Virus record (IMG/VR): IMGVR_UViG_2548876949_000016
Source: a virus
Lineage: Duplodnaviria; Heunggongvirae; Uroviricota; Caudoviricetes
Direction: 5' to 3' (one strand)
Length of the DNA stretch: 6,289 nt
Positions 973 to 6,289 of this stretch are shown piece after piece. Below the pieces are notes generated by a model. It saw only the letters and a list, made by a program, of their open reading frames with translations, was not told the origin of the DNA and made no database searches. A program made the translations under genes and the position numbers. The first letter of the stretch is position 1; every line of letters begins with the position of its first letter.

Positions 973-1392
973 CTATGATGCGTTTTGTGCTTTCTTTTTA
1001 CGGATTTCTTCGTAGATCATATTGTAATACTGTTTTTTCTCTTCAAGAGTTTTTAATAATTTATCCGCTTCACTTTCTGGCAGTTCGTCTAAGAGATCTA
1101 AAAAAATACGTTGTCGTGGCGTTAGAACCCTTGTTTCATAACTGGAGGCTGTGTTCGTTGATGATGAAACGATACCATCCATCCATCCCCGGGGTAACCC
1201 AAAGGACTCTTCGATAATCTCCACCATATCATCAGCGATCCGTTTTTTTCCCTTTTTCCCCTCTGGGTACAACATTCTTGATACATAAGAAGGCTCGCGC
1301 CCGATCTTTCTGGCCACGTTAACCGCTTTACCATCGCATTTCTCATCACGAATTTTGATGAGTTGCTGTCGTCTAAATTCATATTTGTCCAT
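973..1392 (-). CDS. CI-like prophage repressor (139 aa) with N-terminal helix-turn-helix and no LexA/S24 peptidase domain
   Basis: Divergent from the cro-like gene; N-terminal segment KAVNVARKIGREPSYVSRM looks like a classical HTH; AT-rich codon usage typical of immunity genes; C-terminal half is charged/coiled-coil-like with no Ser-Lys dyad or S24 fold signature; flanked by repeated operator palindromes. Confidence 0.75.
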   Translation of the reverse strand: MDKYEFRRQQLIKIRDEKCDGKAVNVARKIGREPSYVSRMLYPEGKKGKKRIADDMVEIIEESFGLPRGWMDGIVSSSTNTASSYETRVLTPRQRIFLDLLDELPESEADKLLKTLEEKKQYYNMIYEEIRKKKAQNAS

Positions 1393-2205: not shown

Positions 2206-3168
2206 ATGAGCAGCAAGCTTCATGGTCTTGTCTGGGAAGGGTGCGCCTTCACCGGCATGATCTTATCCAGGGTGGCGGTTATGGCCCGTCTTGCAGACTA
2301 CAGCAATGACGAGGGCGTGTCATGGCCTGCCATTGAAACTATCCGGCGTCAGATCGGTGCAAGAAGTGAATCCACAGTGAAATCGGCTATTGCAGAACTG
2401 GCGAAAGAGGGCTGGCTGACGAAGGAAGAGCGTAAGGTCGGTGGGCGTAATGTAAGCAATATCTATCGGCTTAATGTGGAAAAACTCGAAGCAGCTGCGG
2501 CGGCGGCGCGTGAGTCATATAAACCGAAAAGAAAAATTAGCCCGGCAAAAAATGACCCGTTAACAGTTGACCCGTCAAATATTGACCCCTCAACGGTTGA
2601 CCCGTCAAATTTTGATGGATCAACTGTTGATAAAAAACTGCCGATTAGGGGGGCGATGATTGACCCCGATCCGTCAGTATTAAAACCTGATCCGTCAGAT
2701 AAAAGATCTTCTTGTCCGGACGCTTCGCAACCGGACCCGCAGACGGCTGAACAGGATTTTTTAACCCGACACCCTGACGCGGTTGTGTTCAGTGCGAAAA
2801 AACGCCAGTGGGGAAGTCAGGAAGATTTGGTGTGCGCACAGTGGATCTGGGGACGAATCGTGAGTCTTTACGAGCAGGCGGCCAGCTATGATGGCGAGAT
2901 CACTAGACCGAAAGAACCCAACTGGACAGCATGGGCCAATGACGTTCGCACAATGCGGATGCTGGATGGCAGAACTCACAGACAAATTTGTGAAATGTTT
3001 GGGCGTCTCCAGCGGGATTCGTTCTGGGTAAAAAACATCATGAGTCCGGCAAAACTCCGGGAAAAATGGGATGAACTGGTTATCCGCCTGGGGCGTTCGC
3101 CTGCGCAGCGTTGCGTGAATCACATTTCTGAACCGGACACTGAAATACCGCCGGGATTCAGGGGGTGA
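2206..3168 (+). CDS. phage replication initiation protein: N-terminal HTH origin-binding domain, repeat-rich linker, DnaT-like (primosomal protein 1) C-terminal domain
   Basis: ATG 2206 preceded by a GGGGGG SD (2196..2201); the track's GTG at 2191 is an alternative start. N-terminal region has HTH character (SWPAIETIRRQIGARSESTVKSAIAELAKEGWL). C-terminus ends SEPDTEIPPGFRG, matching my recollection of the E. coli DnaT C-terminus (SEPDSQIPPGFRG). Contains the iteron array and is immediately followed by a DnaC homologue. Confidence 0.7.
   Translation: MSSKLHGLVWEGCAFTGMILSRVAVMARLADYSNDEGVSWPAIETIRRQIGARSESTVKSAIAELAKEGWLTKEERKVGGRNVSNIYRLNVEKLEAAAAAARESYKPKRKISPAKNDPLTVDPSNIDPSTVDPSNFDGSTVDKKLPIRGAMIDPDPSVLKPDPSDKRSSCPDASQPDPQTAEQDFLTRHPDAVVFSAKKRQWGSQEDLVCAQWIWGRIVSLYEQAASYDGEITRPKEPNWTAWANDVRTMRMLDGRTHRQICEMFGRLQRDSFWVKNIMSPAKLREKWDELVIRLGRSPAQRCVNHISEPDTEIPPGFRG
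2551..2640. repeat. iteron array (putative prophage origin of replication) embedded in the initiator gene: six 15-bp units, four well conserved
   Basis: Units at 2551, 2566, 2581, 2596, 2611, 2626: aatgacccgttaaca / gttgacccgtcaaat / attgacccctcaacg / gttgacccgtcaaat / tttgatggatcaact / gttgataaaaaactg; units 2 and 4 are identical. A further ATTGACCCC copy at 2659..2667. Followed by AT-rich stretches and four GATC sites (2618, 2668, 2689, 2705). Confidence 0.55.
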
Positions 3169-3174
3169 CGTGTC

Positions 3175-3921
3175 ATGAAAAACATTGCGGCAGTTGGGGT
3201 TCTTGAACGTATTCGCAGACTTGCACCACAGGGGTCGGTTCCACCGTACCGGACGGTGGAGGAGTGGCGGGAATGGCAACTTGCTGAAGGACGAAAACGC
3301 AGCGAGGAGATTAACCGCCAGAATCGCCAGTTGCGGGTGGAAAAAATCCTGAATCGTTCGGGCATCCAGCCTCTGCACAGCAAATGCTCGTTTGCAAATT
3401 ATCAGGTGCAGAACGACGGGCAAAAATACGCGCTGAGCCAGGCCAAATCCATAGCTGACGAACTGATGACCGGGTGCACGAATTTTGTGTTCAGTGGTAA
3501 AACCGGCACCGGGAAAAATCACCTTGCAGCGGCGATGGGCAACCGGCTGATGGTGAAGGGGCGCAGCGTGATTATCGTCACCGTGTCTGACGTCATGAGC
3601 GTGTTGCATGACAGCTACGACAACGGCAAATCCGGGGAAAAATTTTTACAGGAGCTTTGCGGGGTTGATTTGCTGGTCCTGGATGAAATAGGCGTTCAGC
3701 GGGAGACGAAAAACGAGCAGGTGGTATTGCACCAGATAATTGATCGCCGGACAGCATCACTGTGCAGTGTCGGGATGTTAACAAACCTGAATCATGCCGC
3801 AATGAGTACGCTTCTTGGTGAGAGGATTATGGACCGCATGACCATGAACGGTGGTCGATGGGTGACGTTTAACTGGGATAGCTGGCGTCCAAATGTCAGC
3901 AATATGAGGGTTGTGAAGTAA
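3175..3921 (+). CDS. DnaC-like replicative helicase loader (AAA+ ATPase, 248 aa)
   Basis: Walker A FSGKTGTGKNHLAAA and Walker B LLVLDEIGVQ, plus overall collinearity with E. coli DnaC as I recall it (N-terminal MKN..., RSGIQPLH, MLTN, LLGERIMDRM, FNWDSWR). Start is 7 nt after the initiator stop, with a purine-rich SD. Confidence 0.85.
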   Translation: MKNIAAVGVLERIRRLAPQGSVPPYRTVEEWREWQLAEGRKRSEEINRQNRQLRVEKILNRSGIQPLHSKCSFANYQVQNDGQKYALSQAKSIADELMTGCTNFVFSGKTGTGKNHLAAAMGNRLMVKGRSVIIVTVSDVMSVLHDSYDNGKSGEKFLQELCGVDLLVLDEIGVQRETKNEQVVLHQIIDRRTASLCSVGMLTNLNHAAMSTLLGERIMDRMTMNGGRWVTFNWDSWRPNVSNMRVVK

Positions 3922-3942
3922 TTTTGTCCGGAGGAAATTTTA

Positions 3943-4713
3943 ATGGAAACCGTATCTGACGCACTGAAAGCACTGAAAAAAGCCTCTTCACATGTGGTGG
4001 CAGCTCGCCTTGGAATCAGTCGTGAAGAGGCTGTCAACGAGCTGTGGGAACTCAAAAGAAAAGGCGTCGTTGATAAAACTGGTCACACCTGGTTTCTGGC
4101 TGGCGAAGGTGAATCCCGGGTAACCGAAGAGCGGCCAGTAAAATCTGAAGCACAGGATATGCTGACCGGGGAGGTCGAACAAAAAGTTACCGCAGACATG
4201 ATGATTGAGTTTATCGGTCAGGATGGGGCTAAAACGTGTGAGGAACTGGCGGGTAAGTTCGGTGTCAGTACTCGCAAGGTTGCTTCCACGCTGGCGGTGG
4301 TAACCGCAACGGGGCGGCTGGCACGCGTTAATCAGAACGGTAAATTTCGTTACTGCATGCCGGGCGATAATTTACCAGCAGAGCCGAAAGCCGCGCTGGT
4401 AACGGAAAGTGATGGTAAGGCCTTTCCTCAGCCAGCAGGTGCTGCGTTACCAGTCCGGGAAGCCGCAACACAGGAAGAAATTAAAACAGAAACTGTGGCG
4501 GACATTGTGCAGCCGTTGCCATCGTTTACCGAAACGCAAGCAGATGAGCTGATTTTTCCGTCCCTTCGCAGGGCAAACCTGGCGCTGCGCAGGGCGAAAA
4601 GTGATGTTCAGAAGTGGGAGCGAGTCTGCGCCGCGCTGCGGGAGCTGAACAAGCACCGGGATATTGTTCGACAGATTACTGATTCTTCCCGCCGTGTTGT
4701 ATCGGAAAAGTGA
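3943..4713 (+). CDS. hypothetical protein (256 aa) with two tandem winged-helix-like modules, possibly DUF1627/YdaW-like
   Basis: GGAGGA SD 3930..3935, ATG 3943. Internal duplication visible in the translation: residues ~5-53 (VAARLGISREEAVNELWELKRKGVVDKTGHTWFL) and ~84-140 (CEELAGKFGVSTRKVASTLAVVTATGRLARVNQNGKFRYCM) both fit a winged-helix pattern; basic helical C-terminus. Follows the DnaC-like gene as ydaW does in Rac. Confidence 0.55.
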   Translation: METVSDALKALKKASSHVVAARLGISREEAVNELWELKRKGVVDKTGHTWFLAGEGESRVTEERPVKSEAQDMLTGEVEQKVTADMMIEFIGQDGAKTCEELAGKFGVSTRKVASTLAVVTATGRLARVNQNGKFRYCMPGDNLPAEPKAALVTESDGKAFPQPAGAALPVREAATQEEIKTETVADIVQPLPSFTETQADELIFPSLRRANLALRRAKSDVQKWERVCAALRELNKHRDIVRQITDSSRRVVSEK

Positions 4714-4728
4714 TTGCCGGAGGCGCTT

Positions 4729-5154
4729 ATGGCAAAAGTATTTACACAAGAAGAGCGGGAAAAAATTAAAGGGCAGGTTGTTGAACTTGTACGTCTGAGC
4801 GGTCGCGAGACGTTGCGGCAACTGGAAGCCAAGACAGGTGCGACAAGATATCTGATGAGTGTTCTCGCCAGAGAGCTGGTTGCCAGTGGCGATGTATACA
4901 ACTCTGGTTACGGGTTATTCCCGTCTGAACAGGCGCGTAAGGACTGGCAAAATGCTCGCAAAAAACTCTCAAGGGCAAAGGTGAAGAAACCTGCAGTGGT
5001 TGATCCGGACCTTATCTGGTCGTTACCAGACGGCGAAATACGCCGCTACGACAGGCGCCTGAATATAATCTGTCGCGAGTGCCGGAAGAGCGAAGCTATG
5101 CAGCGTGTACTGGCATTTTATCAAGGAAATGTTAGGTATTTTAGACGTTACTAG
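4729..5154 (+). CDS. hypothetical protein (141 aa from ATG 4729) with one winged-helix-like module and a basic Cys-containing C-terminus
   Basis: GGAGG SD 4719..4723, 5 nt before ATG 4729; the track's 4714 start is an in-frame TTG just after the upstream stop. Segment VVELVRLSGRETLRQLEAKTGATRYLMSVLARELVASGDV has winged-helix character; no family recognised. Confidence 0.5.
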   Translation: MAKVFTQEEREKIKGQVVELVRLSGRETLRQLEAKTGATRYLMSVLARELVASGDVYNSGYGLFPSEQARKDWQNARKKLSRAKVKKPAVVDPDLIWSLPDGEIRRYDRRLNIICRECRKSEAMQRVLAFYQGNVRYFRRY

Positions 5155-5307
5155 ATTAAAGAGCATTAGTTCAGATGTGAATTGACATTTTCATGGCGCA
5201 GGGTAGAGCCAGCGTGGTTGTCCGCTTTGCGTCAAAACCAGATATTACCAGATTTAGACATATATTCCCGATAGCCCTGCTCTGATGCTACACTCTGTGC
5301 TATTTTC

Positions 5308-5994
5308 ATGACCCCAATAAAAATATTTATGACTATTGCTGATTTCAAACGGCCTAAATTGGAGCTCCCAAACGGGGCAAACAAACTACTACTGCACTCT
5401 TGCTGTGCTCCATGTTCCGGTGAAGTGATGGAGGCGCTTCAGGCCTCGGGAATCGACTACACCATCTTTTTCTACAACCCGAACATTCATCCTCAGAAAG
5501 AGTATTTAATTCGTAAGGATGAAAATATTCGCTTTGCTGAACAACACGGCGTGCCGTTTATCGATGCTGATTACGACACCGACAACTGGTTTGAACGTGC
5601 CAAAGGAATGGAATGGGAGCCTGAGAGGGGGATCCGTTGTACCATGTGTTTTGACATGCGTTTTGAGCGGACAGCGTTGTACGCTGCTGAAAATGGTTTC
5701 AGTGTGATCAGCAGTTCACTGGGCATTTCACGCTGGAAAAATATGCAGCAGGTTAACGAGTGTGGGCGGCGAGCTGTTGCGCATTATCCGGGTATGGTGT
5801 ACTGGGATTATAACTGGCGCAAGCAGGGCGGCTCGTCCCGTATGATTGAAATCAGCAAGCGCGAAAAATTCTATCAGCAGGAATATTGTGGCTGTGTGTA
5901 TTCTCTGCGCGATACCAATCTACACCGCAAATCTCAGGGACGCCCTCTTATCAAAATTGGCCAACTCCACTACGGAAAAGAAGAGAAGGAGTGA
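5308..5994 (+). CDS. queH: QueH-like epoxyqueuosine reductase (DUF208 family, 228 aa), prophage cargo
   Basis: Three cysteine motifs that I recall as the QueH/DUF208 signature: [11 protein letters not shown] (nt ~5389..5421), [10 protein letters not shown] (~5638..5667) and EYCGCVYS (~5881..5904). Separated from the upstream gene by a 153-bp gap containing TTGACA at 5182..5187. No convincing Shine-Dalgarno before ATG 5308 or the alternative ATG 5329, so the start is uncertain. Confidence 0.6.
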
Positions 5995-6289
5995 TTTTAT
6001 GGATCACCTTTCTGATTGATTTCATATTGGCGAGGTGACGTGAGTTAAGTAGAATGGCTGCGGGTGCTTGAGGCTATCTGTCTCAGGCATGAACACTGAA
6101 AGGCAGATAGAGAAAAGCCCCAGTTAACATTTCGCGTCCTGCAAGACGCTTAACATTAATCTGAGGCCCAATCTATGTCTCACAAATGTAGGTTAGCCTC
6201 TTACGTGCCGAAAGGCAAGGGGAAGCAGGCTATTGTTAACACCAAGCTGTAATGTCCCCTTTGAACCATTCTAAAATGTCCCCAGACAA

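Follow-up and report, generated by a model that had tools for sequence, protein, structure and literature searches.

What do the two genes that follow the replication genes of a common type of Escherichia coli prophage do, and to which families do they belong? The question is raised by a stretch of 6,289 nucleotides (nt) from IMG/VR virus record IMGVR_UViG_2548876949_000016 – the whole of which we call the window – that represents the early right-hand region of a lambdoid E. coli prophage of the Rac/CP-933P type. Within it two open reading frames, ORF1 and ORF2, stand one behind the other between positions 3943 and 5154, after a gene for a DnaC-like helicase loader. An inspection of the letters alone (the sequence-only reading) had seen here three consecutive winged-helix units, encoded in the position of the lambda ren/nin genes. 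That observation is real and mostly accurate, and its interpretation partly right: ORF1 and ORF2 belong to two known families, to which they are already annotated, and one of these is the family of lambda Ren. What we add is the link between DUF977 and Ren, the identification of ORF1 as a full-length YdaW with a five-part architecture, and a position that is independent of the type of helicase loader.

The families of ORF2 and ORF1

The relationship of ORF2 is revealed by comparison with lambda Ren, a protein of 96 amino acids (aa). ORF2 matches phrog_142, the 'Ren-like exclusion protein' family, at E=1.7e-46 over profile positions 1-113 of 116, and lambda Ren matches the same profile, likewise over its full length, at E=1.6e-41 (profile positions 11-110); moreover, the N- and C-terminal halves of ORF2 are each recognized separately (E=4.6e-24 and 6.8e-17). 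The Pfam family DUF977 (PF06163) is matched by ORF2 at E=7e-28 with 97.7 bits, against a gathering cutoff of 22.1, across profile positions 1-133 of 134, and here too each half matches by itself. ORF2 and Ren share an N-terminal winged helix, an aligned region around K71 and W73, and an invariant motif, N-x-I-x-x-E-C-R-x-S-x-x-M-x-R-x-L-A-x-Y. Across 22 DUF977 and 10 Ren sequences N112, C118, S121, M124, R126 and L128 are invariant, while the fuller signature (N112, I114, E117, C118, R119, S121, M124, R126, L128 and Y131) is invariant or nearly so. Compared directly, the two tails show 60% identity over 20 aa by BLASTP (E=5e-7) and an hhalign probability of 94.6%. The proteins are nonetheless far apart: identity in the joint alignment is about 27%, BLASTP and shallow-alignment hhalign see the tail only, and ORF2 is 45 aa longer, with 10 extra residues at the N-terminus, an insertion of about 10 residues within the winged helix and another of about 20 following it. 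Taken as alignments, these data place ORF2 in the lambda Ren family – a closer kinship with ren than the analogy of position that had been proposed.

That analogy itself stands, in that the genes are the first after the replication module; in lambda, however, ren overlaps the end of P and directly follows the module in the rightward early operon, whereas here ORF1 stands between the loader and ORF2. The basic, Cys-containing tail ICRECRK, which the sequence-only reading had singled out in ORF2, is indeed present and conserved, and alignment identifies it as the Ren motif. It is not a metal-binding motif. A zinc-finger or zinc-ribbon interpretation is ruled out by the alignment, where C118 is the one invariant Cys, lambda Ren has Phe in place of C115 and no other Cys or His is conserved: a single conserved Cys cannot make a zinc site. 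In the AlphaFold2 (AF2) model of ORF2, built from the alignment of DUF977 plus Ren, the winged helix – DUF977 was already recognized as such by Kinch et al. (2009) – is followed by a fourth helix of net charge +5, with K71, W73 and K79 conserved in Ren also, then by a stretch of low confidence, and finally by short helices over the conserved tail. ORF2 is basic throughout.

The assignment of ORF1 to DUF1627, which had been offered as a guess, is correct: PF07789 is matched with 328 bits (gathering cutoff 28.1; E=9.8e-99), its positions 1-155 falling on residues 91-245, and phrog_630 is matched at E=9e-133 over positions 1-252 of 253. The K-12 representative of this family is YdaW of the Rac prophage (b1361, 186 aa), which, like ORF1, is encoded directly after a DnaC-like gene (ydaV), and which is 55% identical to ORF1 over aa 1-154, a segment that covers both winged helices. 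An internal deletion in Rac has cut ydaW off, such that the protein is without the second linker, the PSFTE motif and the basic C-terminal helix described below, and has removed the DUF977 gene that would follow. Judged by alignment, then, ORF1 is the full-length counterpart of the truncated YdaW. The naming of these genes in phage records is uneven: the DUF1627 protein is called 'YdaW family' and once 'similar to DNA replication protein DnaC-like protein', the DUF977 protein 'LygF', 'Ren-like exclusion protein' or hypothetical, and the two are easily confused. The notion, encouraged by this loose naming, that YdaW is the DUF977 protein is ruled out by the K-12 record, in which ydaW is a truncated DUF1627 gene whose product does not align to ORF2.

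The AF2 model of ORF1, built from a diverse alignment of 43 sequences, comprises five segments – two winged helices, two disordered linkers and a long basic C-terminal helix – all of which are kept in the family alignment down to 20-25% identity. The segments differ in character. Winged helix 1 is neutral to acidic (family median net charge -2) and carries conserved glutamates, E29 and E36, on its third helix, features that suit protein binding better than DNA binding. Winged helix 2 has a median charge of +3, with R111, S115 and R128 conserved at positions that usually contact nucleic acid, and is itself Ren-like, phrog_142 matching residues 84-137 at E=3e-6. The first linker varies across the family from 12 to 37 residues; the second, which is long and acidic, bears a conserved S/L-I/P-P-S-F-T motif. 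The C-terminal helix has a median charge of +7, with R216, R217, K219, R233 and K237 conserved. In one E. coli DUF1627 variant of 277 aa (P0001), represented by one NCBI entry that is flagged as partial, the second winged helix contains a perfect tandem duplication of 39 residues, which may reflect an assembly artefact or a recent duplication.

Three winged helices and the question of regulation

Structure prediction bears out the proposal of three winged-helix units in a row (ORF1 1-55 and 82-140, ORF2 7-64; AF2 per-residue confidence, pLDDT, ~85-92). The order of elements assigned by DSSP in all three fits helix-strand-helix-helix-strand-strand with a beta-hairpin wing, and Foldseek searches of the PDB with both models returned winged-helix proteins only. 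Single domains match Z-alpha, FeoC, ArsR, MarR and GntR structures with probability ~1.0 and a root-mean-square deviation (rmsd) of 1-3 Å over 55-65 residues. The single-domain matches of ORF1 are MarR, ArsR, Z-alpha and FeoC, those of ORF2 GntR, MarR, IclR, AspA and the Z-alpha domain of ZBP1. A search of solved structures by sequence gave nothing below E=0.07 for either protein, and the ORF2 model compared with BFVD found generic viral winged-helix proteins, many of them unnamed, with Ren not recognizable among the top 50.

The 'evident internal duplication' that the sequence-only reading saw in ORF1 fares less well. By pairwise comparison residues 1-70 and 76-160 give z=0.7, a score reached by 483 of 2000 shuffles. 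The two modules are 11% identical and are linked by hhalign profile comparison only, with a probability (92.8%) that any two winged-helix families can reach. The second module of ORF1 compared with the winged helix of ORF2 gives z=4.8 (3 of 2000 shuffles), and hhalign against the ORF2/Ren module a probability of 93.3%; on these figures the clearer pairwise relation is that between the second module of ORF1 and the module of ORF2, not that between the two modules of ORF1.

Proteins with two winged helices per chain, like ORF1, are found among its top Foldseek matches: ScpB, the C-terminal domains of SelB, ESCRT-II and DDRGK1/UFL1, with about 145 aligned columns. There is no sequence relationship to these scaffolds and the rmsd is 10-14 Å, because the relative orientation of the domains in the ORF1 model is arbitrary: a disordered linker of about 25 residues connects them, and they do not pack against each other. 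The likeness is one of parts and not of family membership.

Folds of this kind invite the view that ORF1 and ORF2 are sequence-specific transcription regulators of the MarR/GntR type, acting on delayed-early phage genes or on host genes. The best single-domain fold matches are indeed MarR, ArsR, GntR and IclR repressors; there are weak Pfam and PHROG matches to HTH_Crp_2, MarR_2 and 'MarR family transcription regulator', some fragments of Ren bear the label 'MarR family transcriptional regulator' at NCBI, and YdaW has been listed among the putative E. coli transcription factors. Yet what is shared with these repressors is the fold of a single domain. All matches to transcription-factor families lie under the Pfam gathering scores, none to MarR or MarR_2 rising above them (MarR_2 12.6-12.9 bits against a cutoff of 27), and in the AF2 models of ORF1 and ORF2 no N- or C-terminal dimerization helices of the MarR type are packed on the winged helices. 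The conserved acidic residues on the third helix of winged helix 1 speak against the same view, as does a search for repeats and palindromes around the two genes, in which no operator-like sites stood out. The genes, furthermore, move between phages with differing immunity and regulatory regions. We regard a regulatory role as improbable.

Position, selection and possible functions

The sequence-only reading described the genes as closely packed behind the helicase loader, and so they are: ORF1 starts 21 nt past the loader stop and ORF2 15 nt past that of ORF1, RefSeq using the same start for each (for ORF2 the ATG at 4729). The 15-nt spacer is in frame, so that ORF1 and ORF2 share a reading frame with one TGA between them, and its length and frame are identical in 79 of the 79 loci that hold both genes. 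Two metagenome proteins, 403 and 372 aa long and each from a single contig, contain both Pfam domains (DUF1627 and DUF977); stop-codon mutants, read-through calls and sequencing errors are possible origins. Nowhere in positions 3000-5300, and so nowhere between the replication genes and the end of ORF2, is there a terminator-like or a good promoter-like site, and co-transcription of ORF1 and ORF2 with the replication genes is the simplest reading of this.

How general this position is we assessed in 158 IMG/VR loci that carry a DUF1627 gene (80 close and 80 diverse relatives were taken). Immediately upstream lies a DnaC-type loader in 104, a loader of the unrelated lambda-P type in 45, an O-like initiator in four, and another gene or none in five; a helicase loader of one type or the other thus precedes DUF1627 in 149 of the 158. 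The remaining contexts include a phage DnaB-type helicase (in a Salmonella prophage), a RecE-like gene, and an initiator after which comes a small winged-helix protein that is Ren-like. DUF1627 is in this way a marker of where the replication module ends, irrespective of the make-up of that module. Among relatives at least 84% identical to ORF1, the upstream loader is of the DnaC type in 53 of 78 loci and of the lambda-P type in 25 of 78. A partnership with the DnaC-like loader in particular, which had been entertained, is unlikely given that near-identical ORF1 proteins occur with two unrelated loader types.

The two genes are also separable from each other. DUF977 lies directly downstream of DUF1627 in 69 of 78 close loci and 20 of 80 diverse ones, each gene is found without the other, and in mEp460 and HannyBb DUF977 alone directly follows the replication gene, just as ren follows P in lambda: the pairing is frequent and not obligatory. 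In Salmonella prophage contigs (L186, 3662-3991; L187) initiator and DUF1627 are separated by the gene for a 109-aa winged-helix protein with a C-terminal '..QECRR..' motif. The match of this protein to the Ren/DUF977 profile is weak (E=8e-6, six sequences searched), while the profile of the second winged helix of ORF1 matches it at E=2e-8, and the order of the Ren-like and DUF1627 genes in these contigs seems to be swapped.

A role in replication, which the position supports, is the main rival to the function that we favour below. ORF1 and ORF2 would here be accessory proteins that bind origin-proximal or forked DNA, or host DnaB and the replisome, and that tune helicase loading, the change from one mode of replication to another or the way in which the replication complex is attached. 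The frequency with which a loader precedes DUF1627, the DnaB-type helicase of the Salmonella prophage and the predicted co-transcription with the O-like and DnaC-like genes are all in keeping with such a role. Winged helix 2 and the C-terminal helix of ORF1 are basic, as is ORF2, and the structural matches include DNA-maintenance scaffolds such as ScpB (for ORF1) and the winged helix of archaeal Rpa2 (for ORF2). In addition, a preprint by Thomason et al. reports that Rex proteins contact both lambda O and Ren in two-hybrid assays, and describes Ren as 'likely involved in DNA replication'. On the other side, the occurrence of scarcely altered ORF1 proteins with either loader type, and with other modules besides, makes a loader-specific partner unlikely; DUF977 and DUF1627 each occur alone; and a paper that cites the earlier literature gives lambda ren and the whole nin region as dispensable for plaque formation. 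The position itself could reflect merely the fixed gene order of lambdoid phages. On balance we think a replication-accessory role rather unlikely.

The function that we tentatively consider the most likely is counter-defence against abortive-infection systems. On this reading ORF1 and ORF2 belong to the rightward early operon of a lambdoid prophage as accessory genes, are transcribed together with those for replication, and encode proteins that, during phage replication, would prevent abortive-infection systems – Rex-type exclusion, retron-type toxins – from firing, whether these are the host's or a resident prophage's. They might do so by binding defence proteins directly, the acidic winged helix 1 of ORF1 being the likely protein-binding part, or by coating the replication DNA or protein intermediates that trigger defence. 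Both this function and the two modes of binding are drawn from homology, genomic context and two hints in the literature. The first hint concerns Ren: mutants of lambda ren are reportedly sensitive to Rex exclusion, and expression of Ren is said to rescue the UV-sensitivity and lysis phenotypes that RexA and RexB cause. The second concerns YdaW, which an overexpression screen (preprint) lists with other prophage genes as a 'blocker' of RcaT, the toxin of retron-Sen2. Together with the homology of ORF2 to Ren, the ren-like place of DUF977 in mEp460 and HannyBb, the contacts between Ren and Rex, and the Ren-like second winged helix of ORF1, this screen hit suggests counter-defence. Also to be counted in its favour are the behaviour of the genes – of a dispensable, accessory type, shuffling between phages with differing immunity and replication modules, yet under purifying selection – and the presence of the region in 4594 of 5426 complete E. 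coli genomes. The statement that the pair has no assigned function accordingly holds for biochemical function, while the families are named and the Ren-Rex contacts and the YdaW hit already point somewhere.

Several points weigh against this reading. The YdaW result is a screen-level hit from a preprint, obtained with a truncated protein 55% identical to ORF1, and its place among the individually validated blockers is not confirmed. The link to Rex concerns lambda Ren, from which ORF2 differs at nearly three residues in four; the Rex-related phenotype is that of lambda Ren itself. PADLOC models of defence proteins yield weak, generic winged-helix matches to ORF1 only (CARF3 E=8e-4, Csa3 E=1.6e-3) and none to ORF2 or Ren. 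A role in replication would account just as well for the fixed place of the genes behind the replication module, and the description of Ren by Thomason et al. leans the same way.

A more specific form of counter-defence, which we hold to be doubtful, has DUF1627 and DUF977 as a two-protein module that travels with any type of lambdoid replication module. ORF2 and the Ren-like winged helix of ORF1 would mask the replication intermediates, or bind the sensors, of abortive-infection systems such as Rex and retrons, and the remainder of ORF1 would capture a toxin or host factor by means of the acidic winged helix 1, the acidic linker – a possible DNA mimic – with its PSFTE motif, and the basic helix.

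That the genes might do nothing at all, being hitch-hiking filler or genes in decay, is suggested by the truncated ydaW of K-12 Rac, by the many fragmentary homologues in the databases, and by the fact that the pair is without a demonstrated phenotype. Both ORFs are, however, intact and have good ribosome-binding sites, and neither is a pseudogene remnant. Among diverged homologues the median ratio of nonsynonymous to synonymous substitution (dN/dS) is 0.40 for ORF1 (91 pairwise comparisons) and 0.18 for ORF2 (60), which indicates purifying selection on both; per domain there are 4-6 usable pairs, too few to read. The domain architecture persists down to ~25% identity, and the 1.2-kb region is found in most E. 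coli genomes – with at least 80% coverage in 1145 of the genomes matched – at up to nine places per genome. Selection and conservation essentially exclude decay, as far as comparison of the sequences goes, and filler is in our estimation a very improbable account.

Abundant as it is in E. coli, DUF1627 is a narrow family. When 1.84 billion cluster representatives were scanned in full, 154 clusters matched at E <=0.001, the named distant members coming from Salmonella and E. coli, and scans of viral contigs with two distant members (P0406 and P0375) gave no matches. A tblastn search of 50,697 phage records reached 24 records with each protein, all at ~59% identity or more, and did not reach lambda Ren. 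The DUF977 alignment, scanned against one genome per species, found Escherichia/Shigella only, plus contigs of metagenome-assembled genomes (MAGs) that resemble E. coli contamination. A few records with non-enterobacterial labels – PP818812.1 ('Actinobacillus phage vB_Apl-pPE4') and MAGs labelled Collinsella, Bacillota and Veillonella – carry DUF1627 or DUF977 genes 78-95% identical to those of E. coli, beside neighbours of E. coli type (YdaT, lambda-P-like). Both the host given for the phage record and the binning of the MAG contigs look doubtful, and E. coli prophage contamination may be the cause.

The window and what the pair may mean

The features of the two genes and of the replication genes before them are collected in Table 1.

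Table 1. Replication genes, ORF1, ORF2 and their parts within the window (AF2 elements: H, helix; E, strand; residue numbers)
Feature	Position	Strand	Remarks
O-like initiator	2206-3168	+	15-nt-period repeats within gene
DnaC-like helicase loader, directly upstream of ORF1	3175..3921	+	NCBIfam PRK12377, E=1.4e-152; phrog_50 'DnaC-like helicase loader'
ORF1 ribosome-binding site, GGAGG	3931..3935	+	7 nt ahead of ATG; read from sequence
ORF1, 256 aa, DUF1627 protein	3943..4713	+	PF07789, phrog_630; 100% identical to WP_000450998.1
ORF1 winged helix 1 (aa 1-55)	3943..4107	+	pLDDT ~90; H4-11, E13-15, H16-23, H27-39, E43-46, E49-52
ORF1 linker 1 (aa 56-81), predicted disordered	4108..4185	+	pLDDT <50 at residues 56-79
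ORF1 winged helix 2 (aa 82-140), basic, Ren-like	4186..4362	+	pLDDT ~85; H84-94, H99-106, H110-123, E127-131, E134-138
ORF1 linker 2 (aa 141-203), acidic, disordered	4363..4551	+	pLDDT <50 at residues 143-184; median charge -6
PLPSFTE motif in ORF1 linker 2 (aa 191-197)	4513-4533	+	P193 88% conserved; family consensus 'SIPxFT'
ORF1 C-terminal long basic helix (aa 208-255)	4564..4707	+	H208-237, H239-255; pLDDT 87-96
Junction: ORF1 TGA, 15-nt spacer, ORF2 ATG	4711..4731	+	TGA TTG CCG GAG GCG CTT ATG; read from sequence
ORF2 ribosome-binding site, GGAGG	4719-4723	+	within spacer, 5 nt ahead of ATG
ORF2, 141 aa, DUF977 / 'LygF' / Ren-like	4729..5154	+	PF06163, phrog_142; 100% identical to WP_001151161.1
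ORF2 winged helix (aa 7-64)	4747..4920	+	pLDDT ~90; H7-24, H29-36, H40-53, short hairpin
ORF2 basic fourth helix (aa 67-84)	4927..4980	+	H67-84; pLDDT 83-89
ORF2 C-terminal Ren signature (aa 109-133)	5053..5127	+	moderate AF2 confidence, pLDDT 60-73

The window is 100% identical to a prophage adjoining potC in strain F2_407_2_2 and 99.4% identical to prophages of O157:H7. On the plus strand the order of genes is Cro-like/YdaS-like, YdaT-like (CII-type), O-like initiator, DnaC-like loader (labelled 'ATP-binding protein' in RefSeq), ORF1, ORF2, a QueH homologue and hok/sok. The immunity switch is of the Rac/CP-933P and not the lambda cI/cro type: a leftward ORF of 139 aa in the position of the repressor (973-1392, minus strand), which has no Pfam match, faces a YdaS-like gene in the Cro position (1493-1774) and a YdaT-like gene in the CII position (1758-2183), the latter two overlapping by 17 nt. 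Inside the O-like gene, at 2532-2606, lie at least four overlapping repeats with a period of 15 nt and the core TTGACCC, which also encode a repetitive DPS(N/T)(I/V)DPS stretch of protein; this is where the origin iterons are located in lambda O, and the repeats are probably the origin of the prophage. Downstream of the Ren-like gene, and after a gap of 174 nt, comes a homologue of QueH-type epoxyqueuosine reductase (5329-5994; PF02677, E=1e-65; phrog_3217 'unknown function') that resembles a moron, a prophage-borne tRNA-modification gene. Beyond it, the right end of the window holds the sok antisense RNA of a hokD-type toxin locus (6062-6234; Rfam RF01794, 115.6 bits), hokD in RefSeq beginning right at the window's end.

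DUF1627 and DUF977 genes are among the commonest unexplained genes of E. coli prophages and are present in Shiga-toxin (Stx) phages. Their links to YdaW and Ren tie the two families to a classic unsolved gene of lambda and to hints, from Rex and from retrons, of a capacity to switch abortive infection off. Were the two-protein arrangement to hold true, it would give a defined molecular role to the 45-year-old ren gene and to two widespread DUFs. The ORF1-ORF2 pair is in any case a reasonable and easily testable candidate for a widespread anti-abortive-infection module; if the counter-defence function is true, this would be an anti-defence module linked to replication, with relevance to prophage induction and to the spread of Stx phages.

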